From positions 1 to 64,000 of IMG/VR virus record IMGVR_UViG_3300021426_000072: a stretch of DNA of 64,000 bases, one strand, 5' to 3'. Of the stretch, positions 11,496 to 57,846 are shown piece by piece. The translations under genes and the position numbers were made by a program. The DNA is from a virus (taxonomy: Duplodnaviria > Caudoviricetes). How positions within the stretch are numbered: the first letter of the stretch is position 1; each line of letters begins with the position of its first letter. A model generated the notes under the pieces. That model had not been told where the DNA came from. It saw nothing but the letters and a program-made list of their open reading frames with translations, and made no database searches.

Positions 11496-11524
11496 CTTTT
11501 CCTCCGTCAGATTTAATCGATACA

Positions 11525-12013: not shown

Positions 12014-12017
12014 GTGA

Positions 12018-13934: not shown

Positions 13935-13953
13935 ATATTCTCACTCCTTGTTT

Positions 13954-14301: not shown

Positions 14302-14314
14302 AACTTAATCTCCT

Positions 14315-24940: not shown

Positions 24941-26613
24941 GCAGATGTCACCTCGTATTCGTCAATAATGCTTTGTGTTTCCTGTATACTTGCGACATCT
25001 GCCATGCTGATTAGCTTAGACCCTCCAACTCCGTTTACAGAACCAACATACACATCACCGTCAAAATGCCCGTCGCCATTCCAGTTAAGGACAAAAGCGT
25101 TAGAGCGTGCATCGGTTGAGAACCCGCTGCCAACAATGAAAGCCTGTTCGGATGTGCGACCAACATAGTCCCACTTGTTTTCATCAAACGTAGCGTCGGA
25201 GTTTGCAGTCTTGCAAGAGAATCCGAAGCCGTCCTTGTTAACAAGATTTCCGACGACGTAAGATGTATTTGCAGTCCACGAGGGGAATACAGTCGGGTCT
25301 TCAACATTGCACCCACCGGCAATAAACGTTGATGTGCCAACATTGCGAAGAGCAACACCGATTGAAGAACTATATCTTACGTTTGGAGAAACATGGATTC
25401 CTTGACCAATAGCAACGTTGCCAGTAGATCCATCAGCGGTGCCTTCAATATAGTTGCTGATACCGAGCAAAACAGATTCACGGGTTTCATCAACCACGTT
25501 GTTTTCGCCGAACACGAAGTTGTAATATGGATCTTTTCCACCAACTTCGTTTCCAACGCCGATGAGATAATTGAAATCCCCGCCACTATAATTCCCGAAA
25601 CCAGCAACAAGCGATCCGCGATTTACGCCATTTGCTTTTGTGAGCATGTTTACACCAATAGCGAAACTATCGAAAGTACTGCCACTGTTGTGTTTTACGA
25701 GCAGAGGCGGCTGTTCAGTTTCCCATATCAGAGAATTCGGAAGGGCCTTTTTGGTTTCGTTTATCCGTTCGATAAGTACAGTATATGTTCCAGCGGTTCG
25801 AGTAAACAGAATTACTTCATTCCGGCTGTTCATATCAAATGTAATAACAAACGGAACATTATAGTTCTTTTCGACTATACCGGGGTTTATGCCGCCACTG
25901 GCAACAAGCAGATTGCCAATATACTCGAACACTTTTACATTTCCGTCATGATCATAGTTGAGCTGGACTGGAAGAATATAAACAGTTCCGTTGACGGTAA
26001 CCCGATAAAGATTTTCTTTGTACGCTCGCCCAGTCACAGGAGCAACGCCTGCGGCACAAGGGGCACCAGAAGGCTGCGCTGTCGTCACGGTAAACTCTCC
26101 GTTGAAAAGAGGGGTGTATGTACGAGCAGTAATACCAGCATTATCAAGTGCGTCTTTGTCAACTTTCACAGAGATGTCAGGTTGTTCTCCCGGTATGCCA
26201 AGAGCAGTAATATCGCCCTTCGTAACTGCGGAAACAGTAGCAATGTGACCTTCGTCGGTAACAGCTATCTTGTAAAGACCAGAAGCCGTTGCGGTCGTCA
26301 GTCTGTTTGCATCGGTTGCGTGATCGTATGCAATTTTGCCATGATCTCCACGATAGGCAGTAGACGATGTTTCGCCAAGAGCAACACCACTAGTTCCATT
26401 GATAACATCAAACGTATGGGAGCCTGTTGCATCTGTTATGGTTATTTTGTGCCCATTTTCAATGTTTTGAACATCTACAGTAGGGGAAAAGCCATCTTGT
26501 CCGGTTTCTCCTTTAGCTCCAGGATCGCCTTTATCGCCTTTAGCTCCTTGTGGACCTTGTATAGCAGGAATGCCAACCCATTCATTTCCTGATTTTACAT
26601 TAAGAATGTCCAA
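24937..26613 (-). CDS. Adhesin-like fibre protein (short collagen, YadA-like head repeats, CBM5/12-like module)
   Basis: GXY repeats; LGETSSTAYRGDHGK; G.NN.V beta-roll repeats; WTANTSYVVGNLV...FDENKW; RSNAFVLNWNG. Confidence 0.7.
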   Translation of the reverse strand: MDILNVKSGNEWVGIPAIQGPQGAKGDKGDPGAKGETGQDGFSPTVDVQNIENGHKITITDATGSHTFDVINGTSGVALGETSSTAYRGDHGKIAYDHATDANRLTTATASGLYKIAVTDEGHIATVSAVTKGDITALGIPGEQPDISVKVDKDALDNAGITARTYTPLFNGEFTVTTAQPSGAPCAAGVAPVTGRAYKENLYRVTVNGTVYILPVQLNYDHDGNVKVFEYIGNLLVASGGINPGIVEKNYNVPFVITFDMNSRNEVILFTRTAGTYTVLIERINETKKALPNSLIWETEQPPLLVKHNSGSTFDSFAIGVNMLTKANGVNRGSLVAGFGNYSGGDFNYLIGVGNEVGGKDPYYNFVFGENNVVDETRESVLLGISNYIEGTADGSTGNVAIGQGIHVSPNVRYSSSIGVALRNVGTSTFIAGGCNVEDPTVFPSWTANTSYVVGNLVNKDGFGFSCKTANSDATFDENKWDYVGRTSEQAFIVGSGFSTDARSNAFVLNWNGDGHFDGDVYVGSVNGVGGSKLISMADVASIQETQSIIDEYEVTSA

Positions 26614-26657
26614 GCTATATCACTCCTTTCTTAGTAATTATTGGTTTCTTTTGCGTA

Positions 26658-29186
26658 TCAAGTCCGGGATTTGAACTGATACCAACCATGCAGAGAATAC
26701 ATGTCTCCTTCATCAATATTATTGATGTTAAAGAAGTTGCAATATCCTTTGCCATAGGTTGCCGTAAACATTGCTTTATCACCCGTGGGATAGAATTTGT
26801 GATCTCCAAGGTCATAATTCTCATCAATGTCCACCCGGATTTCATGGTCTGTGGAATACCCTACCACATGGCAACACGTTGCATCGTTGCTCTTTGTAGC
26901 CTCAGAAGAAGCATCACCCACGGCACGATTCGTTGCTCCGATGTACTGTGTGTTCTTGTAAACGGCTCCACCCTCATATGTTGAGTTCCATGTCCATTGC
27001 AGACCATACCAGATCATCATCTTAACATCTTCAAGCGGTATCAGATCGACAAACGCTTCAAACTTGATTCCATCAAAGATGAGTCGATGGTTTTCCTGTA
27101 ACACTTCACGCCCTGTGCCGTCTGCTTTTTTCGTGTTGGTGGCTTGCACAAGGTTCGTCCAATCCATCTCAAACATGGAACAACTGCCACTACCGGAAGA
27201 AACCGCAATGTTATCGGCTTTGAAAGCAAGAGCCGTTCCCCGTGCGGTTGGTGTTGATCCTTCTCCGGTATTGTTGTACTGATGGTTCCCACCTGTGAAC
27301 GTATCGGATTCGGTGGAATCTCCGTCAATGTTGTTCAATGCTTTTACAACGAACGGTGCGAACCAATCCGTGACTGTTGTAATCAATGGCACTTGGTTTT
27401 CCGCAGAAGTGCTGATGTCTGCGGTGGAGTTGGCAATCAATCCAATCCGATAGAAGTCGAACAGATTGTTACCGCCTTTTTTCTTCAAAGTGATGGCAAT
27501 ATCGTTTAATGCGTTATACTTTGAAATCAGCGTAACCGCATTGCCGTTGTCACCAATTACATAGTTGATCTTTTTTCCGGCAGATAATACCTTCTGTTTA
27601 ATCGTAATATTCCCATAGGGAATAAAAGCAGAAGGAAGGGTTTCTCCCTCGACAATAACGCATCTCTGGTTCAGAACAGTAAGCGAAACCTTATTCGCAG
27701 AGATGTAATAATTGAATCGAATATATGCCGTATTTGCCGGGGTTGTGAACGTGTTTCCATTTCCACCACTCAAGTAGTTGTCTGAACTGTCATAAGCAAA
27801 CCATCCGGCAGCAGCATTGTGCCAAGGTTTTACGATGGAATCATCAACTGCCGGGACAAGACCAACGGTGTACTTCGTGCTTGCCTTGACGGGAATCGGT
27901 GCGGTGCAATTCCACGCCTTATCGAATTGTGTGGAAGAATACGGCACACCGTTTACATAGTAGTGCGGTGAAATGGTTTCACTCGTCTGCTTTGACGGAT
28001 CGTACTGATTGGCCGTAGGGTACAGCGTGCGGTCATCAAGCAATGTACTCTGATTCCCTATCGCTTCCTTTAACGAAGTAATAGACTCAGCCATGCCATT
28101 AGGATTTATCCAAACATTAACTTCTGGATCAGAAGGTTCTGTAGTCCCGTAATATACGCCAGAATTTCCTGTATCTCCCTTGACACCCTGAATACCCTGA
28201 GGTCCTTGAGGACCTGTGTCTCCCGTGTCTCCTTTATCTCCTTTTTCGCCTGTAGCACCGTCAAAATAATCTACTCCCTTTACAGGGGTATAACCATCAT
28301 TACCGGGATCGCCTTTAGGACCTTGTATTCCTTGAGGGCCCTGATCTCCTGTTTCTCCTTTAGGACCTTGAAGACCTTGTGGTCCTTGCTCTCCATCGAA
28401 ATAGTCAACTCCTTTAATTGGAGTGTAACCGTCTTGACCGGGATCTCCCTTGTCGCCCTTTTCGCCTTGAATACCTTGAATTCCCTGTGGACCTTGAGAA
28501 CCAGTATCTCCTTTAGGTCCTTGAATACCCTGTATTCCTTGAGGGCCTCTTTCACCTTGGATTCCTTGTTCTCCTTGTGGGCCAATGTCTCCGGTTTCAC
28601 CCTTTTCGCCACGATCACCTTTTTCACCTTGAATACCTTGGATACCTTGATCGCCTTTATCACCCTTATCACCTTTAAAGGCTCCACTGTCCAAAGCTTC
28701 CTGCAAAGTATCTGCGACAGTAAAATGAATTTGATCTAATACTGTTTGAGCCTGCGAAGCGTAGTTTTCTGCTTGCTCTGCTTGATTACGAGCTTCAGCA
28801 GCAGAAACATTTAACGCAGCTATAGTTTGAGAAATTGTGCTTTGTTGAACTGGAGTTGGTTCTTCATCAGTAGGCTGAGCTCTTTTAGTCACATTAATAA
28901 TGGCGTGGTACTCTGTTTCACCGTCACCATCACCTTCATGAAGAAATATCCATACATGAATGTTTTCGCCTGTCGTTAAAAATTCATCAGGAATATCAAC
29001 GCCAGATGAATCACCAATCATAGTTTTACTATTTTCAATTTCATTATTGCTAAAATGAACTTCATATGCATCTGGGAGTTCTATATCTGTAAACTTTAGT
29101 TTTTGTCCATAATCATATTGAAAGAGACTCCCTGTGTATGATACGACCCCTCGTTGAAGACGTAATGAAATAGTATTGCCTCTCAT
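26658..29186 (-). CDS. Collagen-like fibre protein
   Basis: Long GXY run (~28170-28680) with GYTPVKGVDYFDG breaks; N-terminal LFQYDYGQ BppU-like domain; RBS AAAGGAG before ATG 29186. Confidence 0.85.
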   Translation of the reverse strand: MRGNTISLRLQRGVVSYTGSLFQYDYGQKLKFTDIELPDAYEVHFSNNEIENSKTMIGDSSGVDIPDEFLTTGENIHVWIFLHEGDGDGETEYHAIINVTKRAQPTDEEPTPVQQSTISQTIAALNVSAAEARNQAEQAENYASQAQTVLDQIHFTVADTLQEALDSGAFKGDKGDKGDQGIQGIQGEKGDRGEKGETGDIGPQGEQGIQGERGPQGIQGIQGPKGDTGSQGPQGIQGIQGEKGDKGDPGQDGYTPIKGVDYFDGEQGPQGLQGPKGETGDQGPQGIQGPKGDPGNDGYTPVKGVDYFDGATGEKGDKGDTGDTGPQGPQGIQGVKGDTGNSGVYYGTTEPSDPEVNVWINPNGMAESITSLKEAIGNQSTLLDDRTLYPTANQYDPSKQTSETISPHYYVNGVPYSSTQFDKAWNCTAPIPVKASTKYTVGLVPAVDDSIVKPWHNAAAGWFAYDSSDNYLSGGNGNTFTTPANTAYIRFNYYISANKVSLTVLNQRCVIVEGETLPSAFIPYGNITIKQKVLSAGKKINYVIGDNGNAVTLISKYNALNDIAITLKKKGGNNLFDFYRIGLIANSTADISTSAENQVPLITTVTDWFAPFVVKALNNIDGDSTESDTFTGGNHQYNNTGEGSTPTARGTALAFKADNIAVSSGSGSCSMFEMDWTNLVQATNTKKADGTGREVLQENHRLIFDGIKFEAFVDLIPLEDVKMMIWYGLQWTWNSTYEGGAVYKNTQYIGATNRAVGDASSEATKSNDATCCHVVGYSTDHEIRVDIDENYDLGDHKFYPTGDKAMFTATYGKGYCNFFNINNIDEGDMYSLHGWYQFKSRT

Positions 29187-29219
29187 ACGGTGTCTCCTTT
29201 CCATTAAAAATTAGAAGAG

Positions 29220-29255: not shown

Positions 29256-32200
29256 TTAGAATGAATATCCAGAAAGATTAAGACCTTGTTTTGTAATTTC
29301 TTTTACAAAAGCTTGTCCCACTTTTCTTGCCACTTTATCATAATCTTCATCAGACTTAAACTCGGCAGCATTAATTGTAATATTGATATCACCAACACTT
29401 GTATTTCCTTTTAAAGATAAATCAGAAAGAGATGTTGTTGCAGATTTAACTGTAATATACTTAAATGAATCGAGCATTGCTCTCATCAAAGAAGTATCTT
29501 CTGCATCTAAGAATGATTCCGGTCTCTGAGGAGTTCCGTCTACCCAAGCTGGGCCTGTGAAATCAACCAACCCACCTTCAGCATAATGCATTGAGTAATT
29601 TGCTCCTGCTGATGTATACGAGGATTTTACTGGATTCTTTTTATCTTTATAGTCATCTTTCAGATAAACAACATCCACTAAACGACCCATTTCTTTTGCA
29701 GCAGCAATGGCTTTTTGCATAGCTTCAGTGTAACTTGAAGCTGGTACAGACCCGCCTTGCGAAGTTGGGTTGCCTCTTTCGTCTGTTGTTGTAAAATAAT
29801 ATGTCTTTTGCGCTGGTTGTTTTTGAGGTGTAGAAGATTGAGGCTCGGGCGTAGGTGCTTCTATTGGCTCAATTATCTTATAAATATTATTCAAATCTTC
29901 AAGAGACAACTCTTTTCCATTTGAAAAATCGATTGTATTTATTGTGCTATCTGATAAACCATAAGGAGAACCAACTTCACCAGAAACTCCAATTACATTA
30001 ACATTAAAGACATTATTTTTAAGTTCATCTATTTTTGATTCAACATCACTAAGAGAATGATTGTGAAGATCAAAAGTAGCACCAGTTTTATTTGCATTAA
30101 CGTCATTATCGTAATATTCGCTCCATTGTCTTTCAAGTAAAGCCATAGAGTTTTGGTCGTTATTTTCTTTAAAGGAACGATATTCACGATCTGTGTTACG
30201 CATATAATCAAGGAAAGAATCTTTGCTTGTTAAAATAGATGTAATCATTGCGTAGTTGGAATCCACAATGTCGTTTGCTTTCTTCCAAGTGTCTTCCCAT
30301 CCTTGAATCATTTGCTTTTGAGCGTCTGGGAGACTCTTCATGAAAGCTTCGTTTTCTTTTCTCATGAATTCCATGATCTTATCGTAAGAATCTTCAAAAG
30401 AACCAGAAAGAATATCATTCATCTCTGCTGCAAAATTATTTGCATCAGAAAGAATGTCGTTAAGAAGTTCTTCATTATATTGAATAAACTTACCTAATCC
30501 TTCTGCCTGTTCATCAATTCTTTCGTTTTCTGCATTTAACTGATCTTCTGCAATTGACCAAGCCTGTTCTTTTTCAAGATCTTCAATCTTACGTTGTAAT
30601 TCTAAAGCATCTTTTGATCTTGTTGGATCAGCTTGAATTAACGCTAATTGTCTTCTGTAATCCGCAAGTTCTTCGTCTTTATCTGCTTGTTCAGAAGCTT
30701 TTTTGCGATAAGCGAATCGTTCATTTATCAGCCGTTTATACTCTTCGAGATTTTCCTTTTCTTTATCAAGATCTTTCTTTTTAAGATCCCATTCATTTTG
30801 CAAACGTCTCTTTAACAGATCAACAATAGTATTCTGCATAGAAACATTTGCATTAAGAATTTCTCGATTACGTTTCTTTTCGGCTTCAATTTCTTTGTCT
30901 ACCGCGTCTTCCAGAGCTTTTCTAACTTGCATAATCTTTTTAACATTTTCATCGTGAAGCTTATTATTCTTTTCGATCTGAACGTTTTCAGCTTCAAGAC
31001 TTTCTTCTCGTTTCTTTATCTGTTCTACAATTCTTTTTTCTTCTTTTGATCCGTCTGAGAATAAAGCATGTTCTTTTTCTAATTGAACAATTTCAGCCAT
31101 TAGTTCGTTTACACGCTCATGTCTTAAATCATTTTCTTCTTCAATTAGAGCATTAACATTTTTCAGTTCTCCATTTGACTGATATTTAGAAGATTCATAT
31201 CCGAGAAGTTTTAAATTATGATCGTATTCAGAAGCAATTAAATCTTGATCTTCAAAAATCTTATCAAGTCTAATTTTTGCAAGTTCTCTTGTTTGTTTTC
31301 TTTGTTCTATAATTAAGTTTTGCAGATTAGACTCATAAGTATTAATCTGATCAAGATACTCCCGTTGTATTGCCGGATCAAGCAACCCAGCCAGCATTCC
31401 TTCGTTATATTGAGACCAGAGAGTATTTACAGCCGCTATTTCTGCTTCAACTAAATCAGGAATATTATTTAAATACATTTGCATCGCTTCAAAATAAGCG
31501 TCATAATCGTTTGTATCTAAATATTCTTGAGCTTGTTCGTTAAGCATTTCATTAACATGTGTAATTTCTCTTGTTGCATCTTCATAGTTTTCGGTAAGGC
31601 CAGATAGATTGCTTTCAGCTAAAGCTCTATTAAGCTCCATTTGGGATGTTTCTGTTTGAGCTATAGCTTCTTGATATTGGTAAACAGCGGCCTGTGCTTC
31701 AAACCACGCAGTAGAACCTTCTTGCAATGTGTTCATTTGTTCAATAGCTGCGGTTTCAGCTATTTTATTATTAACTGCAATGGTGGAATTGATTCTTTGT
31801 TGCTCACGAAGCATATCTTCGTATTGGCTCCGATAGCCTCCTGACTCATAAGCACTCCCATACATAGAAGCAATATTCTGGTTGTGGCTTGCAGTCTGAG
31901 TATTCTGTTGAAGAACTTTTGCAATTTGAGATAATCTTTGAGAATTAATATCAAGTTGCATTTGAACAAGTTGATTGTCCAATTCAGCATTTTCTTCTTC
32001 TTTTTCCCATATCTTATCTCTTACATCTCTCCATGCATCTGTATCTTTTTCAAATTCCGCCAATTGTTTTTTCCAAGCCGTTATATCAGAATCATTGTTT
32101 AATCTGCGAGTTTGTATTTCTTTTATGTTCTGTTCTGTAAATCTTTCATAATCAGCAAAACGATCTTCATTCATTGCTCGTTGAGCATATTTTTCGAGCA

Positions 32201-35200
32201 TACTTTCTTTATGTGTTCCTGGCTTTGTCTGTTCTTCGAGCTTATCTGCAAGAACTTCTATTTTCTTAGAATTAATACTGTTAATAGTATTATTAATCTC
32301 TGCTAAAGCTTCTTCGGCAGCATAAACTGCATCACGAAGTTTATACCAATCGTCAGAGCTACTGGAAACAGTTTTCATCATATTATTAAGTTCAGCTATA
32401 TTTTGATTATAAGCTTCTCTTAACTCATATTGTAAATCAATCTGATTGTTGATATTGCCAAAAGAGCCAGAATAATCATTTCTAAAATCAAGATCTTTTT
32501 CTGTTGATTCTAAAAGTTTGCTACGATGCTCCAATTCTGCAAGACGACGTTTTTGACTTTCAAGAAGTTTATCAACGGCGGACTTTCCTCCACCGCCACC
32601 TCCACCACCGCCTCTGGTCCCAGAACCTAAACCATCAATGACGAGTTTTGCATCGAAAGAATCTTTTCCAGCGTTAACCTCTAAATGAGCTTTTACGCCC
32701 CAAGCTTGAAGTTCTTTGAGAACGCTTTCTTGAGCTTCATTGAGGTAAAGATCTGTTTCATTAAGAGCTTCATCCAGACTTACACTGACTGGACCGCTTC
32801 CAATAGTTATTGGAGCCCCTTTAACTTCGATTGCATCGCCATTTTTAAAGTGGTCTGTCAAAGTTTGGCTAATACTTTCGCTTAGAGAATTTGCATAATC
32901 TTCAATGCCTGATATATCAACTTGCTCCGAACTTTCAAGCAAACTGTCAACCAGAGCTTTATTCATGGATTCAAGTTGTCGTTTGTCCACGCCAAGCAAT
33001 CCTGCAACAGCGTTTACAGTTTCAGAATCTCTTTTCCCTTGTTTATACTGTTGTCTATAATATTGATTCTGAGAAATTTTAGACATAGATTGATTCATTT
33101 GCATAATCGCAGAGCTTGATTTCTTTGCGTCTTTGCTGAATAAATCCATGTAGGCTGTTGTTGATTTTGTGTCTTTTGCGAAATTCTTAACATCAGCAGA
33201 AGCCTTCTTCAGAGCTTCGTCAACATTATCAATACCGGTTTTAAAGTTTTCTGTTGGGATGCCTGCTTCTTCAAGAACTTTTGTAAATTCTTTATACTGT
33301 TCCTGATTTTCGGCGTAATCAGCTAAAGAAGTTGGTTTATTTATGCCTTCATATTTGTTAAGTTGCCGTTGTGCTTTAAGAATAGAGGCGAGCTGATCGT
33401 TTCCTGAAGTGTAAGCATCGATTATTGTTTGATCTGTAGTGCCAACATAATCGTTGTATGTCCCCTTTAGAACAGAATCAAACAATTCCTGTTGAGTGTT
33501 AATCTTTTGGAAGTCTACAAGACCATTTATCCCATACCCAAAATTAGTAGCAATATCTTTTGCATACTGTCTTTCGAGACTAGATAAAGTATTTGAAGAT
33601 CCCGAAGTAACCATATTGGAGCTAAGAACCTTACTGGCAAATTGATCCCCGAAAATGGTTGTTAGTTCTTCTCTGTCTCCACCAAACGGGTTTTCATTTC
33701 CCATCTCATCTAAAGCTCTTAATATAGATGTCGCTCTTTCTGCTTTTGAAGAATAAGCATCTATTGTAATGCCTTTGTATTCGTTTGACTTTGAGGCTAA
33801 CGCTTCTATAAACTTTCCAAAAGCAACATTGTCTGTATCTGTCGATGTTGTTACTGTTACAGGATTATAGTTTTCATCAACAAAATTTCTTTCGACAAAA
33901 TAAGAAGATAACAAACGACCAAGTCCCGTATCTTCTACTGCCTGTGTGTAAAGACTACTGTTTATATCGCCTCGATTAACAGCATCAATTAAATCCTGAA
34001 GACTGTTAATTTGTAAACTGTAGATATTTGTTAATAAGGTATCTGCATTAATAGCTTTTTGTCCTGCCTCTGAAGCGCCTTCTGTGCTAATAGCGTCTTC
34101 TAACGCTTTTCTAAAAGTAGATCTGACAGGGCCTTTTGATTTAATTTTTTCTGTTTCTTCGGCTTCGGCTATGACATCTTCTATGTCTATATTTAAATTA
34201 AAAGCATCAGCAATTTCTTTAACATTTTTAGCAGTATTCGAAACAAGGGTTTTCATTGAATCTTCATATTCAGATTCAGCAGCTTCAATTTCTTCTGTTG
34301 ATGGTTCATAATCAAATAGATAAATAGAGTCACCAATTTGTAATATCCAATCAGAAGACAAATCAACCAATTTTTCTGCTACGGCTCTTAATTTTCTCTC
34401 GTTTTGTTTAAATTTATCTTCAGTTAGAATTTGTGTTTCATTATTATCTGTAATTTTATACAAAGGGCCAGTAAAACTAGAATCATCAACCCAGGCGGGA
34501 AGTTCTCCTCTTCCTGTAGCCCAACGCTTATGAGTAGCAAAAAAGTTTAAATCATAATCCTCTAAAGCTTCATTAACACCCTGTTCTGTTTCAGGATATT
34601 TATAAACGCTTCTCATAGCGTTCATTTGTTCTTCAATTAGCTTATCTCTATCTTCAGGTGAAACTTGTCTTACAACAGCTTTAGCAATGTTCTGTTTGAC
34701 TTCACTTTCAGTTTGTTCAGCAAAAGTTTTTCCGTATTTCTTTTCTAAAATTCCTTTATATTCTTCGTCAGACAGATTATCTAATACATATCTAGTTAAA
34801 GCTTCTCTTGAAATTAACCCTTCTTCATCTGTATATGATAATAGATTCTTTAAGGCAGTTTGATATGCAGCATACGGCCTCTGAGAATAATTTTCAGTAC
34901 TTTGAACATTATTAATAAAAGAGGACATAAATGAAGGAATATACTTCTCGTCGATTCCGCTTGCAATTGCAACATCATTTATTATTCTGTCTGCTCTTGC
35001 GTTTAAAGCCTCTCCTATTAATTGTTCTTTAATTTCTTTTGTTAAGCCGCCGTCAGCTTCGCCTTTATATGTAAGAATAAAGTCAAGAAGCTGTTTTCCC
35101 GCAGAAGTTCTTTGACTCTTTGTTCCACCTTCGCCAGAGATAATTAAATCGGCGTATTTGTCGGCAGAATCAATGTAATCTAAATCAGCAGGAAGATTAA

Positions 35201-38200
35201 TCAGCTTTTTATCGTAGATATATTTTAATGTTTCTCGCATCCATTCGCCAACGGAATTTTCCATAAAATTTTCAGGACTTGAATAATCCATCATTCCAAT
35301 TCCGGTGCTGACATGATGTTCATGAGAAAGATAAGATTGAAGATTTCCAGACGCTAAAGCATATTCAAGATTTGAACTAATATCAAAAGGGTTTGAACCA
35401 TATTTTAATTCTGTGTCAATTATATTAGCAGTATTACGACCTTTTCTCTTATTGTTTTCTGTTTCAAATTCTTTCATTTTAGTAATAAGAGCGTCGTAAT
35501 TGCCTATTAATCCTTGAACTTCCGATCCTACGTGCCCAAATTCTCCAGCCAAAGAGCCTAAGTTGGCTTCAAGCTGGGTTGTTTCATCTGAAGTTAATCC
35601 TGTTACCGAGTTTGATTTTTCAATAAGACTCTTAGTTTCTTCTATGATTTGATCTACTCCAGATGTGCGATCAGATATCTGTTTGATTTGAGATTTTCTT
35701 ATAGTTCTTTCTTCTTCTTTTTCAAGAATTGCATTATCACTTTTTCGTTTTTGTTCTCCTATCGAGCTAACAATCCCAGTTGTAATGAGTGCAATACCAG
35801 TAAAAAGCGCAGCCCAAGGTTTGGCAGCAATCATCATTGCTCCTAAGGCAATCCCAAGAATCTTTATAGCCCCAGACAAGGCTCCAGTTGCTTTCTCTGC
35901 TGCTGTAATATTCTGAATTGTTTCAGATAAGAAATCGAGAAAACCTGTAGCAGTTTCAGATAATTCAAAAGAACTAATTAAATTATCAAATGCTGTTTTA
36001 ACATTATTTAACTTTGCTTCTAATGAATCAAGATAATTTTCATACTTACGGTCGGTAATACCCTCTGAATTTTGAGCAGTATCAAGATATCTTTGAGCTA
36101 ACTCTCCGCCGTCTTCCGCAAGGCCTTGCAACAATGTAGCGATATTAGAACGCTGTCTGCCTGCACCAAGTGTTGTAAGGATCATGCTTTGAGTTGTATC
36201 GTCTGCATTCTCCCATCCAGCGCCAATATCTTGAAGGATTTGGTATGGACCTCTAAAATTTCCTTTATCGTCATACAGACTAATCCCCATACGAGATAAA
36301 GCTTTTGTTGCAGCCGTGCTTGAAATATGTCTTCCGGCTTCATCTGTGAAATCTTCGTTATTGTTTACTTTGTAAAGTCTGTAAATTAAAGTATTTAAAG
36401 AAGATCCAATATTAGAACCGCCAAGCTGAGTTTTAGAAGTGCCAATAGTTAATAATGTAACAAGTTCGCCATAAGACATTCCAGCTTGTTTTGCGGCAGC
36501 GGCAGACTTCTGCATACCTTTTGATATTTCAGAAGCTGTTGTAGCAGCAGAGTCGCCAAGAGCAACAAGAGCATCCATAGCTTCCTGAGAATTATCTACA
36601 AGCCCATTTTGAAGAGCTGTAGTGATAATCTTTGATGCTTCTGTTGTTTTTATTCCTGCGACCTTGGAGAACTTAATCACATCGTCAAGTCGAGCGTCTA
36701 CTTCTTCATCACTCAAACCTTGTCTATAAAGATTTGATGCCGCTGAAGTGACTTCTGTTACAGTAGATCCAGAAGTTTGAGCTGTTCTAATCAGCTTATC
36801 TCCAAGTTGAGAAATTTCTTCGTCAGATTTTAAAGTAATCATCTGAATTTCAGTCATTGACTTATCGTAATCTCTGACGAAAGATGTAACTTCTTTCCGA
36901 ATTCTATACCACAGTTGTCTTCCAAGCATTCTTCCGGCGGCAGAAGCAAGGTTTGAAACTGTTGTCATTGCAGCGTTCATTGCGTTCTGGCCCGAAGAGA
37001 AATTCTTTTGTTCAGCTTCCGCTGCTCTTAAAGCTTCTGTATATCCTTTAATTTTCTCCTCTGCTTGTGCGATGTTTTTGTTTAAGCTTTTATCTTGTTC
37101 TGCATTTCCTGTTAATTGAGACCTCCAAAGATTTATATTGCCTCGTTCGTCTGCAATTTTATTACTGTATGCTTGAGCTTGATTTTCTAAACTAATACGG
37201 TAATTCTCATCTTGGTTGTAAAGCTGCATAAAACGAGAACGAGAACGTCTCATTCTTCGTTGCTGCTTGTATCGATCATATTGTTGTTCTTGCTGTGCAA
37301 GAGCCATATCATTCTGACGAGAAATTGAAGCTATTTGATTCTGTCTTGTTATGTCAAAAGCATCATTTTGTCTTTGCAAATCTTCATTTAAAATCTTTTC
37401 GTAATCTTCTTTGGAGAAAGAATTTAACAATGTAGATAATTCGTCATATTTATCTTTTCCAATCTTATCGTTTGCTCTAAGATTATCTAAAGATCTGCGA
37501 AGAATATCTTGTTGCTTTTCAAACTTCGAAGCCGACAATTTTATTTTGTCTTTTGGATTTGCATTTTTGCCTTGAGATGAGAGTATGAACTTAGAAATAT
37601 CTTCGCTCATTATTTCTTCTGCATCTTCTAATAACATTTGTTCGTATTCTTCTTTTAATTCATATGCAGAATTTAAAGCTGTTTCTGCTTTTGTTAAAGC
37701 TGCTTTATCTTCGTCCGTTGGCTTTGTTCCTGCTTTTTCTTTTAATATATCGTAAGCAGATCTTGCCCGTTCGATATTCTCATCAATTTCCTTTTGTTCG
37801 TTTACTATCTTTCTTGCACTACTTGTTGTTTTTCGATTTAAAATTCTGTTGAACACATCTTCATTAAACGCAACAAAATCGCCAGAAGCTCCAGCTCTTA
37901 ATGTCTGTTCAAACTGTTGATTCGCTAAATCAAAAGAAGTAGAAAATAATGCAAGTTCTTCATCAGAAGCTCCAATTCGAGATAATGTATTACGAAGATC
38001 TTCATAATGATCTTGACCTAATTGGAACTTAAAATTATCCCACTGTGTAGAAGGCTTTTTTGCCGTCTTTTGTTCATATTTTCTACTCATCGACGCCATG
38101 CGTCCACGAAGCTCTTCATATAAGTCTACTGTTTCATCAATATGCTGTCTTCCAGAAAATGCCTTTGTTAAGTCCGGCTTATCCACCTGCGTAACAGGCA

Positions 38201-41200
38201 CAGAGCCTTCAAATGAATACAGAGGAGGAACAGGAGGTTGGTTATTAGATCCTCCTCCTCTATTATTCTGGAGAGGTAATTCAGGCGAGTTTAATGAATG
38301 ATTAGATTGAAAAGAAAAAACTCCAGGCAACGCATATTTATTGAAATATCCCTGTCTGATTTCATGGAATGGATCAGGGTTATTCATAAGATTGATTGCA
38401 GCAGAAGAAAGGTTACGCATACGCTCTTCTACGCTGCTAATCATTTCTGTAGTAATCGGAACAGATCTTGTTTCAAGTTTTCCGTTGCCATAAGAGATTA
38501 TTCCTGCATGAGTTGCTTTGTTGTCACCTGCATACAAAACGGGCTGATCGTATCTGTGACTTTGTCCAGTCTTTTCGTCAATCCACTCAAGAGACTTATC
38601 GTGAGTAAAACCTTCTTTTGCATCCCAGTTTGTAATAGCTCCAGTCCTTGGATCACGAGTAACAAGATCGATATAGCCAACAGAATCAAGCCGACGACCT
38701 AATTTATCGACACCAAGATTTGGATGGACAATACCGCCATTTTTCTCAGCACCAATAATTTCTAAGTCTTTCATGAAATCTGGCAGGCTACGTACAGAAC
38801 TAACAATAGATTGATAGCGCTGTTTTACTTTTGCATCATATAGTTTGCTATCTTCTGTTGGTAATTCGGGGAACAAAGATAATTTTTTCCCTGTTTTTTC
38901 GTCTACCCAATTAAGCAAATAATCGTTTAATAACGCCTCATATTCGTCTGGCGTGCCATAATCATTTTGATTTTTCATTCTTCTGCCAGCCCAAGTTTCT
39001 TGAACTTTATGATAAGCAGAACCAAGAAGCATTAAAGGAGTTATTTCATCAGGAATTCCCGCAATGTATCTGGTGTACCAATTCTCTCCGCCGCTGGCGC
39101 TTTTTTCAATAGTGTGTAATTGGCTCCATGAATACTGACGAGTATTTGCTTTATTTACGGCTTCTGCAATAGCTTCTTGCCGAGCAATATTTTCAGAAGT
39201 AGCCAGTAATTGAGGATCTGCCCCTGAAAGAACAATACTCTTAGAAAGGAGAGCATCCTGTTCAGTATCAAATGCACTTGCAAAATTAGAACGAGAACCA
39301 GTTAGACGACCTTTCGCTAATCCAGAAGAACTAATAAATCCATCTTTTCTATTTGCAGCTTCTTCTGTTATACCATATCCGTGTAAAAATTCTAATCGTT
39401 TCTTTTGAAGCTCAGTTTCATAAAGCTGATTTCTCAAGTATTCCTTTTGAGCTTGAGAAATTCCCGGACGATTATACTCATCAGAAACTAATCCCGCCCA
39501 ATTTGCGTACAATCCTTTTAATTCGTTTTCATCTTTCGTAGAAACAATTTGAGCTTTATTAGAAGCGATTTGAGCCATCAAAGAATTATTTTTACGAAGA
39601 TATTGTGCTTTAGCTTTATCTGCGGGATTATTAGATGATTCAAGCGCATCTAATCCTTGTAAAAATTCTTGAGCTTGAATAAAAGATTCAATCATGTCAT
39701 TGCTAAAAGCACTATCCATTCCCGCTGCCAACATACTTGTTGTTAAATTTGAATAACGAGATGGAAAATTCACTTTTGAAAAATCTTTAACATTCGAAAA
39801 ATCACTGTTTTGAATTGCAGCATGTAAATTTTTAAACATACTGACATAAGGTGTTCCAAGATTTTTCGCGCCTCTTGCATAATGAGACCAAGAAGCAAGA
39901 ACACCAGTTTTGGCAAAAGTTGTATCGATATCGTACATTGCACGAAGATCAACGCCAGCCTGTCTTGCAAACTTAGCCCATTCAGGATCAAGCCAGTTCC
40001 CCTGAGAAAGAGCATCTCCAGCGTTGGAAACTCCAGCCATATCTAAAACAGAAGCTGCTTTTCGATAAAGCATGTCTGCAAAATCAGAACCTCGTACTTT
40101 TCGAGCTCCTCCTTTAAGAGGAATATCTTCTTCTTCTTTAATTGTTGGGCTTAATTTTGCAGCTTCAGATCCTCTAAATTTCCATGTTCTTTCTACTATT
40201 GTTCTTAATCTATTTCTGACAGCCTGAACAGTATCTCCATCGAAATCGCCGCCGCCCATCTTTTTGATAGTGTCCATGTTCATAACCATGGCATTACGGC
40301 TTATACCATACTCATCTAAAAGATTAATAAAATCTTTGGAGTTATATAACTTAAATTGTTCACCTACGTTGTTAGGGTAACGCCAACCTGCAATCTGATT
40401 GTCTGCCCACGCAGCAAGTGCAACAGCATCTTCGTCGCCTCTGCCTTTTAAACTTAATATGTTTGCAAGGTTTTTATTGACAGGAGCTTTTTTGTTGGCT
40501 TTTGCCATAGCGCTAATCAGTTCGAACGGATTGTTAATTGCAAGAGCGTTTAAAGCATCGCCCTTGGCAAAAAACCGTTCATTTAAAAGATCATCCTTAG
40601 CACTTTGAATTGAATCATTGACTCTTGCTCTTGCTTCGGGGTCGCTAAAAAAGAGACTATGATCTGCACTTACTCTTTGAGCCAACGGGTCATCTGGGTC
40701 AGAAAAAAGTAACTTGATAGTTTCTTCTGGATTATGTTCAAGAGTATCAATATACTTTTCCCATTTCTTTCTGTTTGCTGCAACATCTTTTTTACTAAGC
40801 GCTAAATTTTGAGTAACTTGTCTTGAAATAGAATCACTTCTGCTTAAAAATTCTTTATCTGTTGTTACTCCTCGAACACCACCAATTAAGTCGGCAATGT
40901 CAGAAAATAAATCTTGTATTTCTGTGTGACTTTTGCCTTTATAAAACGTGGTTTTATCCATCGTTTTATCGATCAAGGCCTCGTATTTAAGGATGTCTAC
41001 AAAATCTTCATCGAAAGATGTGAGACCAGATTTCTTATATGCTTGACGAACTGCTTCAATTCCACTTTTTTTGTAAAGCTCTTTCATTTCTGCTGGAGCA
41101 TTCCATGTCGGAGCGTAAAAAGAATCAACGTCTCCATATACATCTTTAATCATCTTTTTAAAATCAGTATTAAACCCAGCACCTTTAAATCCTACTGATC

Positions 41201-43154
41201 TTAAAGTCATTGCATCAGCAGGAAGGTATCCAGGCATAAACATAGCCCCGCCATCGAAACCTGTAAGAGAGTTCAAATCAACAAAAGCTATTTGATTTTT
41301 ATCAGGCATTCTTCCGCCAAGTTCAGAAAGAGGAATAGAAGGTGTATGTATTCTGTTTCTCGCATCAATCGGTTTGTTTAATCCTTTTATGGTATCAAAT
41401 GTTTCATCTTGGGAAATAAGATTTTGGAAAACATCTACGCCATACTTGTCAACGAATTGTGTTGCTTTTTCTAAATAAGCAGATTCAAGAGCCAAATCGA
41501 TAACGCCATTCTTATGAATGCCCGTAGGCACATAAGTTCCATTTTTGCCATAGCTGATTGTATTATATTTTAACTGATGATTTCCGGGAGTTGTTATAGT
41601 TTTTCCGTTTTCAACGTCAAATAACTGCGACACAAATGCCATTGTTTCAGCATTTGGTTTTGGTCTGCCGTTTTCAAAAATCGTTCTTCCAGAAGAATCC
41701 TTCTCGTAAATCCTGTCTGAAAGGTCAAGCTGTAACATTCTACGTGGACCGCTTTCAGAGCCATATGTGTTATGACCAGCCATTCCTAAAAGATCCGTAT
41801 AAATAGAACGACTAATCATCTTATTTACGGATTTCCCAGCAGGTCTTGTTTCAGCTAAAGATTGTTTAGGCTCTTTATCGTCAAGTATTACTCCATTTTT
41901 CAGATCATCCAAGGTTAAGGACATAATCTGGAAATAATCAGGACGAATATTTATAGAAGAATCAACAGCGCTTGAATTATCTGCGGAACGTCTATAACTT
42001 CTTGGCTTATCGAGATATAAAGGTTCTCTAACTGGGATTCCCTGTAAAGCGTCGAATGCAGCAAAGCTTTCTGATGCAACATGCGATGTTTTTCTTGCGA
42101 TTGCTTTTTGAGCATAATCATCGGAATTGGAAAGAAAATGACGGTACATCGGAGCACCTTCCAATGCCGGACGGAAAATATTTCTGTCTAAAAATCCTAA
42201 TGCAGCACCGTATTCTGCTTCGCTTATAGGTTTAGTGGGCATGATGAGTTGCCCGGCTTTTCCGTTAGCGACTCCTCTTTTTGCAACACCTGCCATCGTT
42301 AAAGCAGCTTCAAATGCAGGATATTTAGAAGCGACAGCTTTAACAACAGCATAATCTTCATCAGTTAAATTTCCCCCTTGATATGCTTTTCTTTTAGCTC
42401 CATTGCTAAAAGACGTTGTTTTTGGCACATCAGGGAAATTTCTAAAACTTTCCGGTAAACGATCTTTATACGTTACATACTCCGGTAAAACAGACAAACG
42501 TTTAAGCGTTCCTTGAGACGCATCTATTACCTTTTGATAATACGTGTCTCTGTTGTGAGAAGGCGTAGTATACTGAACAACACCTTTTATCAGCTCATCA
42601 ATTTGAGAATTAGATAATCCATATTTTGCGGAAACAGCCGAAGCGCCTTTTGCAAACGGTCCATTATTTTTCAAAATCGACATAAGCGCATCGTCTGATT
42701 GAGGCCCCATATTCCGAGTTGTCTTTCTCAATAAAGAAGAGGCTGTTTTTGACATGTCTGTAAATTCATGTTCAAAATCTTTAGCTAATGCTGAAGGAAC
42801 AGAAGAAAAAATCTTTCCTATAGATCCAGTAGAAGAGAATAACGATTCAACATTAGCTGTTAAATAGGCAATTCCTTGTTTTAAGCCTGTTATAATGTCG
42901 CTACTTATGGATTCTCCAAGCGCAGCGTTTTGAAGAACAGAAGTCAAACCTTTATATTGCTGGACAATATTAGTCTTTGCAGATGAAACATAAGTAGACA
43001 TTGCACTTGGAATGTTTCCAAATGAATTATTACTAAGCGAAGATAAAGAAAAGTTATCTTCTAATGTTTGTAATTGAGTCTGGCAAGCTAAAAGTTCTTG
43101 TTGGTCAAATGGTTTTAAATTTGGATTAATCTCAATGTCTATACGATTACTCAT
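29256..43154 (-). CDS. Tape measure protein with N-terminal two-barrel RNA polymerase and PD-(D/E)XK nuclease domains (4632 aa)
   Basis: TMP core YDKSMTEIQMIT...AGRQRS...KLNNVKTAF (~35950-36870), hydrophobic segment, coiled coils, C-terminal YAEGGLVDFTGPAWVDGTPQRPESFL; lies downstream of the chaperones. RNAP motifs at aa ~633-1085, nuclease motifs at aa ~1341-1545. Confidence 0.92.
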   Translation of the reverse strand: MSNRIDIEINPNLKPFDQQELLACQTQLQTLEDNFSLSSLSNNSFGNIPSAMSTYVSSAKTNIVQQYKGLTSVLQNAALGESISSDIITGLKQGIAYLTANVESLFSSTGSIGKIFSSVPSALAKDFEHEFTDMSKTASSLLRKTTRNMGPQSDDALMSILKNNGPFAKGASAVSAKYGLSNSQIDELIKGVVQYTTPSHNRDTYYQKVIDASQGTLKRLSVLPEYVTYKDRLPESFRNFPDVPKTTSFSNGAKRKAYQGGNLTDEDYAVVKAVASKYPAFEAALTMAGVAKRGVANGKAGQLIMPTKPISEAEYGAALGFLDRNIFRPALEGAPMYRHFLSNSDDYAQKAIARKTSHVASESFAAFDALQGIPVREPLYLDKPRSYRRSADNSSAVDSSINIRPDYFQIMSLTLDDLKNGVILDDKEPKQSLAETRPAGKSVNKMISRSIYTDLLGMAGHNTYGSESGPRRMLQLDLSDRIYEKDSSGRTIFENGRPKPNAETMAFVSQLFDVENGKTITTPGNHQLKYNTISYGKNGTYVPTGIHKNGVIDLALESAYLEKATQFVDKYGVDVFQNLISQDETFDTIKGLNKPIDARNRIHTPSIPLSELGGRMPDKNQIAFVDLNSLTGFDGGAMFMPGYLPADAMTLRSVGFKGAGFNTDFKKMIKDVYGDVDSFYAPTWNAPAEMKELYKKSGIEAVRQAYKKSGLTSFDEDFVDILKYEALIDKTMDKTTFYKGKSHTEIQDLFSDIADLIGGVRGVTTDKEFLSRSDSISRQVTQNLALSKKDVAANRKKWEKYIDTLEHNPEETIKLLFSDPDDPLAQRVSADHSLFFSDPEARARVNDSIQSAKDDLLNERFFAKGDALNALAINNPFELISAMAKANKKAPVNKNLANILSLKGRGDEDAVALAAWADNQIAGWRYPNNVGEQFKLYNSKDFINLLDEYGISRNAMVMNMDTIKKMGGGDFDGDTVQAVRNRLRTIVERTWKFRGSEAAKLSPTIKEEEDIPLKGGARKVRGSDFADMLYRKAASVLDMAGVSNAGDALSQGNWLDPEWAKFARQAGVDLRAMYDIDTTFAKTGVLASWSHYARGAKNLGTPYVSMFKNLHAAIQNSDFSNVKDFSKVNFPSRYSNLTTSMLAAGMDSAFSNDMIESFIQAQEFLQGLDALESSNNPADKAKAQYLRKNNSLMAQIASNKAQIVSTKDENELKGLYANWAGLVSDEYNRPGISQAQKEYLRNQLYETELQKKRLEFLHGYGITEEAANRKDGFISSSGLAKGRLTGSRSNFASAFDTEQDALLSKSIVLSGADPQLLATSENIARQEAIAEAVNKANTRQYSWSQLHTIEKSASGGENWYTRYIAGIPDEITPLMLLGSAYHKVQETWAGRRMKNQNDYGTPDEYEALLNDYLLNWVDEKTGKKLSLFPELPTEDSKLYDAKVKQRYQSIVSSVRSLPDFMKDLEIIGAEKNGGIVHPNLGVDKLGRRLDSVGYIDLVTRDPRTGAITNWDAKEGFTHDKSLEWIDEKTGQSHRYDQPVLYAGDNKATHAGIISYGNGKLETRSVPITTEMISSVEERMRNLSSAAINLMNNPDPFHEIRQGYFNKYALPGVFSFQSNHSLNSPELPLQNNRGGGSNNQPPVPPLYSFEGSVPVTQVDKPDLTKAFSGRQHIDETVDLYEELRGRMASMSRKYEQKTAKKPSTQWDNFKFQLGQDHYEDLRNTLSRIGASDEELALFSTSFDLANQQFEQTLRAGASGDFVAFNEDVFNRILNRKTTSSARKIVNEQKEIDENIERARSAYDILKEKAGTKPTDEDKAALTKAETALNSAYELKEEYEQMLLEDAEEIMSEDISKFILSSQGKNANPKDKIKLSASKFEKQQDILRRSLDNLRANDKIGKDKYDELSTLLNSFSKEDYEKILNEDLQRQNDAFDITRQNQIASISRQNDMALAQQEQQYDRYKQQRRMRRSRSRFMQLYNQDENYRISLENQAQAYSNKIADERGNINLWRSQLTGNAEQDKSLNKNIAQAEEKIKGYTEALRAAEAEQKNFSSGQNAMNAAMTTVSNLASAAGRMLGRQLWYRIRKEVTSFVRDYDKSMTEIQMITLKSDEEISQLGDKLIRTAQTSGSTVTEVTSAASNLYRQGLSDEEVDARLDDVIKFSKVAGIKTTEASKIITTALQNGLVDNSQEAMDALVALGDSAATTASEISKGMQKSAAAAKQAGMSYGELVTLLTIGTSKTQLGGSNIGSSLNTLIYRLYKVNNNEDFTDEAGRHISSTAATKALSRMGISLYDDKGNFRGPYQILQDIGAGWENADDTTQSMILTTLGAGRQRSNIATLLQGLAEDGGELAQRYLDTAQNSEGITDRKYENYLDSLEAKLNNVKTAFDNLISSFELSETATGFLDFLSETIQNITAAEKATGALSGAIKILGIALGAMMIAAKPWAALFTGIALITTGIVSSIGEQKRKSDNAILEKEEERTIRKSQIKQISDRTSGVDQIIEETKSLIEKSNSVTGLTSDETTQLEANLGSLAGEFGHVGSEVQGLIGNYDALITKMKEFETENNKRKGRNTANIIDTELKYGSNPFDISSNLEYALASGNLQSYLSHEHHVSTGIGMMDYSSPENFMENSVGEWMRETLKYIYDKKLINLPADLDYIDSADKYADLIISGEGGTKSQRTSAGKQLLDFILTYKGEADGGLTKEIKEQLIGEALNARADRIINDVAIASGIDEKYIPSFMSSFINNVQSTENYSQRPYAAYQTALKNLLSYTDEEGLISREALTRYVLDNLSDEEYKGILEKKYGKTFAEQTESEVKQNIAKAVVRQVSPEDRDKLIEEQMNAMRSVYKYPETEQGVNEALEDYDLNFFATHKRWATGRGELPAWVDDSSFTGPLYKITDNNETQILTEDKFKQNERKLRAVAEKLVDLSSDWILQIGDSIYLFDYEPSTEEIEAAESEYEDSMKTLVSNTAKNVKEIADAFNLNIDIEDVIAEAEETEKIKSKGPVRSTFRKALEDAISTEGASEAGQKAINADTLLTNIYSLQINSLQDLIDAVNRGDINSSLYTQAVEDTGLGRLLSSYFVERNFVDENYNPVTVTTSTDTDNVAFGKFIEALASKSNEYKGITIDAYSSKAERATSILRALDEMGNENPFGGDREELTTIFGDQFASKVLSSNMVTSGSSNTLSSLERQYAKDIATNFGYGINGLVDFQKINTQQELFDSVLKGTYNDYVGTTDQTIIDAYTSGNDQLASILKAQRQLNKYEGINKPTSLADYAENQEQYKEFTKVLEEAGIPTENFKTGIDNVDEALKKASADVKNFAKDTKSTTAYMDLFSKDAKKSSSAIMQMNQSMSKISQNQYYRQQYKQGKRDSETVNAVAGLLGVDKRQLESMNKALVDSLLESSEQVDISGIEDYANSLSESISQTLTDHFKNGDAIEVKGAPITIGSGPVSVSLDEALNETDLYLNEAQESVLKELQAWGVKAHLEVNAGKDSFDAKLVIDGLGSGTRGGGGGGGGGKSAVDKLLESQKRRLAELEHRSKLLESTEKDLDFRNDYSGSFGNINNQIDLQYELREAYNQNIAELNNMMKTVSSSSDDWYKLRDAVYAAEEALAEINNTINSINSKKIEVLADKLEEQTKPGTHKESMLEKYAQRAMNEDRFADYERFTEQNIKEIQTRRLNNDSDITAWKKQLAEFEKDTDAWRDVRDKIWEKEEENAELDNQLVQMQLDINSQRLSQIAKVLQQNTQTASHNQNIASMYGSAYESGGYRSQYEDMLREQQRINSTIAVNNKIAETAAIEQMNTLQEGSTAWFEAQAAVYQYQEAIAQTETSQMELNRALAESNLSGLTENYEDATREITHVNEMLNEQAQEYLDTNDYDAYFEAMQMYLNNIPDLVEAEIAAVNTLWSQYNEGMLAGLLDPAIQREYLDQINTYESNLQNLIIEQRKQTRELAKIRLDKIFEDQDLIASEYDHNLKLLGYESSKYQSNGELKNVNALIEEENDLRHERVNELMAEIVQLEKEHALFSDGSKEEKRIVEQIKKREESLEAENVQIEKNNKLHDENVKKIMQVRKALEDAVDKEIEAEKKRNREILNANVSMQNTIVDLLKRRLQNEWDLKKKDLDKEKENLEEYKRLINERFAYRKKASEQADKDEELADYRRQLALIQADPTRSKDALELQRKIEDLEKEQAWSIAEDQLNAENERIDEQAEGLGKFIQYNEELLNDILSDANNFAAEMNDILSGSFEDSYDKIMEFMRKENEAFMKSLPDAQKQMIQGWEDTWKKANDIVDSNYAMITSILTSKDSFLDYMRNTDREYRSFKENNDQNSMALLERQWSEYYDNDVNANKTGATFDLHNHSLSDVESKIDELKNNVFNVNVIGVSGEVGSPYGLSDSTINTIDFSNGKELSLEDLNNIYKIIEPIEAPTPEPQSSTPQKQPAQKTYYFTTTDERGNPTSQGGSVPASSYTEAMQKAIAAAKEMGRLVDVVYLKDDYKDKKNPVKSSYTSAGANYSMHYAEGGLVDFTGPAWVDGTPQRPESFLDAEDTSLMRAMLDSFKYITVKSATTSLSDLSLKGNTSVGDINITINAAEFKSDEDYDKVARKVGQAFVKEITKQGLNLSGYSF
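38350..39140 (-). other. PD-(D/E)XK (RecB/AddB-family) nuclease domain within the TMP; boundaries approximate
   Basis: YSWSQL...WYTRYIAG...LLGSAYHKVQE...GAEK...GYIDL (D1496)...WDAKEG (D1511)...DQPVLY. Confidence 0.8.
39700..41650 (-). other. RNA polymerase domain (YonO/RdRP-like double-psi-barrel family) within the TMP; boundaries approximate
   Basis: FDGG (D634), LRSVGFKG (R652), SRQVTQNL, WRYP (R925), GGGDFDGD (D970-D974, nt 40233-40247), DTTFAKTG (K1082); same order as in the 813-aa RNAP. Confidence 0.88.
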
Positions 43155-57250: not shown

Positions 57251-57431
57251 TGGAACTGAAGTGAAGGAATTCCAGCGTCTGAAAGTTTTTCAGCGTAAAT
57301 TGGACGACGTTGGAACACAATCTGTAGCCTGATCAACTGTAGATTGCAAACTCTTTATCAGTAAATGTGCTGATAAGACAAAAAAGCGTTCATTTTAACA
57401 AAAATGACGCTAAAAAGAAAGGGGAATACTC

Positions 57432-57740
57432 ATGAACAACCTGATTCTCTTCATTGTCTGGTGTGCCTCGATTGCTGGCGACTTCAAAACCTACGTTGTC
57501 GCCGCCGAAAACGAAGAAAATGCTGTAAAAACCATCCCACTTTTCATGCGGCAGGACTTCGAAGTCTCTTTTGCGAGCTTAGATCAGGCTTGCGACTATG
57601 GATGCAAGTACATCGGTGACGATACGGTCATATTCGAAGACAAGTTTTTCGTATACAACACAAAGACAAAACGACTTGAGTTTGATTCTCTCGTTAATTA
57701 TGACGTAAGACCAGACCTCAAGTCCGCTAATCCCACCTGA
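57432..57740 (+). CDS. Hypothetical early protein
   Basis: RBS AAGGGG; its stop codon lies inside the hammerhead core. Confidence 0.7.
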   Translation: MNNLILFIVWCASIAGDFKTYVVAAENEENAVKTIPLFMRQDFEVSFASLDQACDYGCKYIGDDTVIFEDKFFVYNTKTKRLEFDSLVNYDVRPDLKSANPT

Positions 57741-57802
57741 TGATGGAGCTGGTGGTTCCGCTCCGAAAGCAACGTCGTGAGACGTGGCTTGTGGGAAACC
57801 AC
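57731..57802 (+). ncRNA. Hammerhead ribozyme, type I, with loop II pseudoknot
   Basis: Stem I TCCCAC/GTGGGA; core CTGATGA (57737-43) plus an extra T; stem II GGAGC/GCTCC; GAAA; stem III GC..ACGTC-GTGA-GACGT..GC; CUU cleavage triplet ending at 57790; loop II GTGGTT pairs with AACCAC (57797-802). Confidence 0.88.
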
Positions 57803-57846
57803 AACAGAATATGCAGCTATGCAATAAATAGCAGGAGGTTGCCGCT

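Follow-up and report, generated by a model that had tools for sequence, protein, structure and literature searches.

Tape measure proteins (TMPs) of long-tailed phages sit in the tail lumen, are ejected first and form or line the DNA channel. The virion RNA polymerase (RNAP) proteins of crAss-like and N4 phages are not TMPs, and the N4 enzyme is T7-like and not of the two-barrel kind. A TMP-fused virion RNAP was found in the Thermus phages P23-45, P74-26, G20c and TSP4 (Chaban et al. 2024, PMC10770324), and our full-text literature searches returned descriptions of such a fusion for the Thermus phages only (the P23-45 paper, PMC10770324). The P23-45 protein, gp96, is present in virions, is active and transcribes the pre-early genes, including the gene for the free RNAP; its RNAP, whose connector (613-679) is short and disordered, has a flat, clamp-less shape thought to serve passage through the tail channel (PMC10770324). 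The supplementary survey of the same work includes gut siphoviruses whose genomes encode two free RNAPs, and it has no TMP fusion (PMC10770324). We analyzed a DNA stretch of 64,000 nucleotides (the window), which is the first 64 kb of the 127,247-bp IMG/VR virus record IMGVR_UViG_3300021426_000072 (CheckV completeness 92%) and contains a giant TMP gene with a predicted RNAP domain in the N-terminal part of its product. The evidence suggests that this TMP is probably a multi-enzyme ejection protein with a complete-looking YonO/QDE-1-type RNAP, which would be delivered via the tail and start early transcription.

The TMP gene occupies positions 29256-43154 on the minus strand and is a single open frame of 4632 residues with zero in-frame stops. 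The tape measure core domain PF10145 was detected at residues 2123-2329 (36168-36788, minus strand) with 95.6 bits (cutoff 33.2), seven PHROG tape-measure families matched the protein, and a Kyte-Doolittle scan revealed a hydrophobic hairpin at residues 2424-2466 (35757-35885, minus strand), a probable membrane-inserting segment. On these three grounds the 4632-residue protein is a genuine TMP. Its gene is flanked by head/tail genes and tail-fibre genes, a position in the tail module that fits the PF10145 match. The RNAP domain (residues 500-1290) lies N-terminal to PF10145 in the same polypeptide, and the predicted order is a conserved N-terminal region of 500 residues, a two-barrel RNAP (~500-1290), a RecB-type nuclease (~1340-1560), a linker and coiled coil, the tape-measure core, the membrane hairpin and about 2100 more ruler residues. 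The protein contains just one cysteine, and its C-terminal half has a conserved poly-glycine run (at least eight G, then K-S) ahead of a coiled-coil block that is strongly conserved. One 62-kb contig covered the region with zero differences, and identical pieces came from a second sample in that study. A search of a bovine-gut sequencing run returned short pieces of low identity alone and no identical contig. The phage DNA occurs in animal gut metagenomes; candidate bovine and goat gut runs were listed with small shares, and no RNA run was among those listed.

The single-chain two-barrel RNAP core was delimited at residues ~500-1290 (39285-41657, minus strand) by an AlphaFold2 model with VIA and Foldseek comparisons. 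An initial annotation of this DNA had listed six polymerase motifs, in order and in one uninterrupted frame with the TMP core, and all six were recovered where it had placed them. The first barrel, which is beta-like (double-psi beta-barrel DPBB-B; 41181-41258), contains FDGG at residues 633-636 (41247-41258) and LRSVGFKG at residues 651-658 (41181-41204); its near-invariant residues are D634-G635 and R652...K657-G658, which align to the window's 813-residue free RNAP and to YonO. The conserved Q motif is SRQVTQNL at residues 777-784 (40803-40826), with a near-invariant Q779, which aligns to PYQQGQTL of the 813-residue RNAP family. The second barrel, which is beta-prime-like (DPBB-A; 40233-40385), contains WRYP at residues 924-927 (40374-40385; R925-Y-P927) and GGGDFDGD at residues 967-974 (40233-40256), the latter with the three metal-binding aspartates D970, D972 and D974. 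A downstream motif, DTTFAKTG at residues 1077-1084 (39903-39926; K1082-T-G), apparently corresponds to AKHG/AKSG of the free RNAPs; the hhalign alignments stop short of it, and this match is read from position and pattern alone. The active-site motifs and the tape-measure core thus share one uninterrupted reading frame.

These motifs were strongly conserved among homologous TMPs. In an alignment of 22 homologs spanning 27-71% identity, each of the following residues was kept in at least 21 of the 22: D634, G635, R652, K657, G658, Q779, R925 and P927; M966-G-G-G-D970, D972, G973 and D974; and D1075, D1077, K1082, T1083 and G1084. A 19-sequence alignment agreed for most of them. The second position of DFDGD was F, V or I, and the three aspartates were invariant in both the 22-sequence alignment and one of eight sequences. 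The aspartates that the initial annotation had called intact therefore also never vary in the homologous TMPs, and loss of DFDGD in homologs, which it had named as a ground for refutation, was not seen. Judged from these alignments, motif conservation down to ~27% identity is not chance.

We searched 5.8 billion proteins with residues 560-1300 and obtained 63 clusters (at 90% identity) of 2765-5892 residues, with identities to the query from 96% down to 27%; all of them carried PF10145. A profile built from eight members of the family gave 68 matches among 1.84 billion representatives, and the full-length ones were all giant TMPs of 3899-5923 residues. The tail of that list (E 1e-5 to 5e-4) consisted of stand-alone proteins of 1000-1200 residues, three of which (P0238, P0239 and P0241) pass PF05183, the RNA-dependent RNA polymerase (RdRP) family. 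Grouped at 50% identity, the proteins with the RNAP-TMP fusion architecture form about 20 clusters, and uncultured phages are the source of every one. By sequence, the whole family of giant TMPs shares the in-frame RNAP fusion. The NCBI name of one member is merely "minor tail protein". No homolog of the polymerase domain was found by tblastn against 50,697 phage records, and scans of 185,579 species genomes detected no prophage copy of it. One relative in the family is nevertheless classed as a provirus.

Several relatives had a giant TMP frame broken by TAG codons alone, with 2-10 of them in the polymerase stretch (positions 6001-8541 of four loci) and all in one frame. In one relative, 5 TAG codons were spread across an 11.9-kb TMP frame (6912-18814), again in a single frame. 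Gene calls with table 11 split the TMP of these TAG-bearing relatives into pieces; the window phage has no in-frame stop. The one candidate stand-alone form of the domain (P0214, 937 residues) was rejected, as it proved to be a fragment of a giant frame broken by TAG codons alone. In the relatives with an interrupted TMP frame, TAG looks recoded.

To examine the fold, residues 500-1350 were modelled with AlphaFold2 from a 19-row alignment. The model had a mean predicted local distance difference test score (pLDDT) of 78.6 and a predicted template modelling score of 0.67, with pLDDT >90 around the first-barrel motifs. Foldseek against the PDB retrieved maize RDR2, Neurospora QDE-1 and Arabidopsis RDR2 (E 4e-7 to 2.6e-4, probability 1.00), and P74-26 gp62 and P23-45 gp96 ranked after them. 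In VIA, the predicted model matched QDE-1/RDR2 with Z 16.2-15.8 over 410-449 residues at a root-mean-square deviation of 3.5-5.1 A, followed by the Thermus phage group's free RNAP, P74-26 gp62 (Z 14.8), and P23-45 gp96 (Z 10.4 over 357 residues); beta-prime/Rpb1 subunits reached a Z of about 7.5 over the second barrel only. Among the PDB matches listed by Foldseek and VIA, phi14:2 gp66 was absent. In the viral library BFVD, the best matches were phage proteins labelled RNA-dependent RNA polymerase (E 2e-12), and crAss-like proteins were among the weaker ones. The predicted model thus shows a QDE-1/RdRP-type two-barrel fold; a prediction devoid of double-psi beta-barrels, another ground on which the initial annotation was to fall, was not obtained.

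Residues 1-1750 gave a weak nuclease match and nothing else against Pfam and PDB sequences, and no match to PF05183 was obtained for the TMP domain even at E<=10. A domain profile had no match among PDB sequences and, at E<=0.1, did not retrieve the free RNAPs of the same phage, and BLASTP of the domain against the window's 813-residue RNAP was not significant. Profile-profile alignments with hhalign ran colinearly across DG, R..K, Q, R.P and DxDGD for both the 813-residue RNAP family (E 1.2e-3, 350 columns) and SPbeta YonO (E 3.7e-3, 327 columns), in which the first barrel was aligned to DGFG...RAPWMK and DGCG...RLPWVK, respectively. The alignment to P23-45 gp96 (E 0.029) covered 45 columns around DFDGD only.

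The spacing of the motifs is YonO-like. From DG to R the distance is 18 residues both in the TMP domain (D634-R652) and in the 813-residue RNAP (D185-R203), an equality that the initial annotation had reported correctly, and 17 in SPbeta YonO and in a second free RNAP of 955 residues. From R.P to DxDGD it is 45 residues in the TMP domain, 40 in the 813-residue RNAP and 43 in both the 955-residue RNAP and YonO, and from the first-barrel K to the R.P of the second barrel it is 268, 210, 226 and 221 in the TMP domain, the 813-residue RNAP, the 955-residue RNAP and YonO, respectively. AK(T/H/S)G follows DxDGD by ~95-110 residues in the TMP domain and the YonO-type RNAPs. In P23-45 gp96 the DG...R pattern is absent and R.P precedes DxDGD by 38 residues. 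The colinear profile alignments and the motif spacing back the assignment of the motifs to the YonO/RdRP type.

Compared with gp96, the window protein is likewise a giant TMP with an N-terminal two-barrel RNAP (5002 residues in gp96, 4632 here) and a DFDGD loop (779-783 and 970-974, respectively). Both proteins have an N-terminal extension ahead of the core (~370 residues before the aligned part in gp96) and a membrane segment further along the TMP, and both are accompanied by free RNAP(s) in the same genome. In contrast, gp96 lacks the DG...R....K pattern, its connector is ~67 residues long and disordered, and it carries a metallopeptidase, against the predicted nuclease domain of the window protein; its host is Thermus, and the host here is probably a gut member of the Bacillota. 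The connector here, judged from its length and the model, is of the YonO type: the model shows the 268 residues from K657 to R925 as ordered helices at a pLDDT of about 80-95. With YonO, QDE-1 and the RDR proteins (PF05183), the TMP domain shares the motif order and near-identical spacings (DG-18-R, and R.P 40-45 before DxDGD), but unlike the YonO-like RNAPs it is not a free protein, being joined to a putative nuclease and a TMP. The crAss-like phi14:2 gp66 and the N4-like phages resemble it in that an injected polymerase lies inside a very large virion protein (PMC10770324). Because motif geometry and profile alignments place it nearer YonO, and because gp96 is flat and clamp-less with a short connector, the domain is probably a YonO/QDE-1-type polymerase and not a gp96 ortholog. 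The RNAP-TMP fusion probably arose independently of the Thermus case, or at the least parted from it very long ago.

Ahead of the polymerase lies a conserved N-terminal region (residues 1-499; 41658-43154, minus strand), which is kept in all homologs and was modelled as a helical bundle plus a mixed part (pLDDT 73.1). Foldseek found no PDB match for the N-terminal 520 residues at E<=0.001, and a wide VIA search returned generic helical-bundle matches at most (Z<=8.1). The initial annotation had let the TMP begin with the RNAP. The RNAP does lie within the TMP's N-terminal part, but its core starts at about residue 500, behind these conserved ~500 residues, and not at residue 1. Similarly, the span 39700-43154 given for it does include the RNAP, but its lower bound did not hold, as the core (39285-41657) reaches ~400 nt past 39700.

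Behind the polymerase, between it and the ruler part, a putative RecB-family PD-(D/E)XK nuclease domain was placed at residues ~1340-1560 (38475-39137, minus strand) on the basis of PF12705 and motif residues. PF12705 scored 20.5 bits in the window protein, just under the cutoff of 22, and was detected in two of eight homologs (best E 8.2e-15). The domain is conserved in the TMP family, as are its motifs D1496, D1511-x-K1513 and Q1537xxxY1541. It is followed by a Pro/Gly-rich linker.

The phage encodes three polymerases of the two-barrel kind, the TMP domain and two free RNAPs. The 813-residue RNAP (58662-61103, plus strand) contains DYDGD, passes PF05183 with 25.9 bits (cutoff 23.8), is 26-28% identical to SPbeta yonO (E about 1e-32) and is a candidate non-virion polymerase. 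The 955-residue RNAP, encoded outside the window at 92306-95173 of the 127-kb record, contains DGCG, RAPYIKG, RSP, DWDGD and AKSG; it has a Cys-rich, zinc-finger-like C terminus and no Pfam match. Each of the five related phage records that were tested encodes at least one free YonO-like RNAP; three of the five records are complete with terminal repeats, and three of the five encode two such RNAPs. These counts demonstrate that the TMP fusion and free YonO-like RNAPs co-occur.

The minus strand from ~0 to 57 kb is a late structural operon with genes for the terminase large subunit, portal, major head protein, tail genes and collagen-like fibres. The strand switches from this operon to a plus-strand arm near 57340-57430. 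Upstream of the 813-residue RNAP gene, short plus-strand open reading frames (ORFs) with good ribosome-binding sites start near 57432, 57847 and 58206; a simple ORF picker instead chose an ORF that overlaps on the minus strand (57579-57941), probably in error. Downstream of the TMP gene the tail module contains collagen-like fibre genes at 24937-29204 and two more giant genes on the minus strand, at 2032-8772 (2246 residues) and 14315-20239 (1974 residues).

The closest cultured relatives of the free RNAP and of the TMP core were all Bacillota phages, and relatives of the window phage carry the SPbeta-type YonB, YomU and YonG families; for these reasons the host is likely a member of the Bacillota. 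When ten structural proteins encoded in the window were scanned against Pfam, no SPbeta family was found, and the SPbeta-like label accordingly rests on the YonO-like RNAPs, the similarity of the TMP core and the YonB/YomU/YonG families of the relatives. A Bacillota SPbeta-like phage, as first proposed, is plausible if read as distantly SPbeta-like. The nearest cultured TMP, that of Psychrobacillus phage Perkons (2439 residues), has ~440 residues ahead of its core, too few for a polymerase module. The TMPs of SPbeta and of Enterocloster phage CB457P2 have no such RNAP domain, since the domain profile found nothing in these phages while positive controls matched alongside.

These results suggest how the polymerase may work during infection. 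Because the TMP would sit in the tail and be ejected at infection, the polymerase would be delivered with the DNA; the N-terminal module would reach the cytoplasmic side beside the entering DNA end, and the polymerase, entering the cell as P23-45 gp96 does, would transcribe the first genes without host RNAP. The free 813- and 955-residue RNAPs would then take over later gene classes. The nuclease may, speculatively, prepare the template or attack host DNA. Several points weigh against this probable role in early transcription. The polymerase domain reaches no Pfam or PDB sequence threshold, and hhalign assigns low probabilities (19% and 9%). A scan of the early region (56.5-64 kb) for the sigma-70 consensus gave 7 sites with 10.4 expected, so that such sites are neither enriched nor clearly absent, and no promoter motif was found, as the 9-mers common to intergenic regions were A/T runs and a tRNA T-loop word only. 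Unlike the flat clamp-less gp96, the domain keeps the 268-residue inter-barrel connector, which would be hard to house in, or pass through, a tail tube. Activity, virion presence and early transcription in this lineage are extrapolated from the gp96 precedent.

The same observations bear on other explanations. The polymerase could be active without being delivered, the N-terminal module being cleaved off during tail assembly or present in a precursor only, and it could then serve as a non-virion RNAP or an assembly factor in the producing cell. Some phage TMPs are proteolytically processed, and the Pro/Gly-rich linker behind the nuclease domain would suit such a cleavage; a clamp-bearing RNAP of ~800 residues is also hard to fit in a tail lumen (PMC10770324). 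However, the gene lies in the late structural operon, so that a non-virion polymerase made from it would arrive too late for the onset of infection. Two free RNAPs are already encoded by the phage, the fusion is kept in every full-length family member, and the fused RNAP of P23-45 was detected in virions (PMC10770324). We therefore consider it quite unlikely that the polymerase stays behind. It is also improbable that the module derives from a polymerase but does another job, such as binding or plugging DNA ends, making primers, copying RNA or pulling DNA purely as a motor, in place of early transcription. QDE-1 and RDR2, whose solved folds come closest, use RNA or single-stranded DNA as template, the adjoining RecB-type nuclease suggests work on DNA ends, and the lack of a detected promoter fits such a job as well. 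Yet the aspartate triad and the basic residues of the first barrel are strictly kept across 27-71% identity, which favors catalysis, and the nearest sequence relative, YonO, is annotated as a DNA-dependent RNAP, as Forrest et al. 2017 reportedly found it to be. The gp96 precedent, moreover, transcribes pre-early genes (PMC10770324).

An artefact, in which mis-assembly, a missed stop or a frameshift joined an RNAP gene to a TMP gene, is hardly credible. The table-11 gene calls that split the region into several genes in some relatives would favor it, but each of these breaks is an in-frame TAG codon and all of them share one frame, which points to recoding, and the window frame has no stop. The 62-kb contig without differences, the identical pieces from the second sample and the recurrence of the architecture in more than 20 clusters at 50% identity all argue against a joining error. 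Returning to delivery through the tail as the preferred explanation, a bolder form of it is conceivable, although we hold it to be rather doubtful. In that form the TMP would be an entry machine of three enzymes, with an evolutionary origin separate from the Thermus case: the nuclease would act on host DNA or on the DNA end that enters and give the adjacent YonO-type polymerase a template, the polymerase, anchored at the TMP membrane pore, would make the first transcripts and help pull the genome in, and the two further RNAPs would make the program independent of host RNAP.

The only published TMP-fused RNAP, known from a handful of Thermus phages, seemed a peculiarity of a thermophile whose tail measures 800 nm. 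The family described here is a second family of RNAP-TMP fusions, and it differs from the Thermus one in its polymerase lineage, its apparent gut Bacillota hosts and the added nuclease; a triple fusion of RNAP, nuclease and TMP was not described for P23-45 gp96. Genomes of this family hold two or three polymerases, and proteins filed merely as "minor tail protein" receive a corrected annotation. The finding also raises a possible virion role for YonO-type enzymes. If the polymerase is active and delivered, injection of a polymerase through the tail would be a recurrent solution, and it would pose the structural question of how a clamp-bearing enzyme of 800 residues is stored in and passes the tail. 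Should the three-enzyme reading also be true, repeated independent RNAP-nuclease-TMP fusions would represent a general infection strategy of long-tailed phages.

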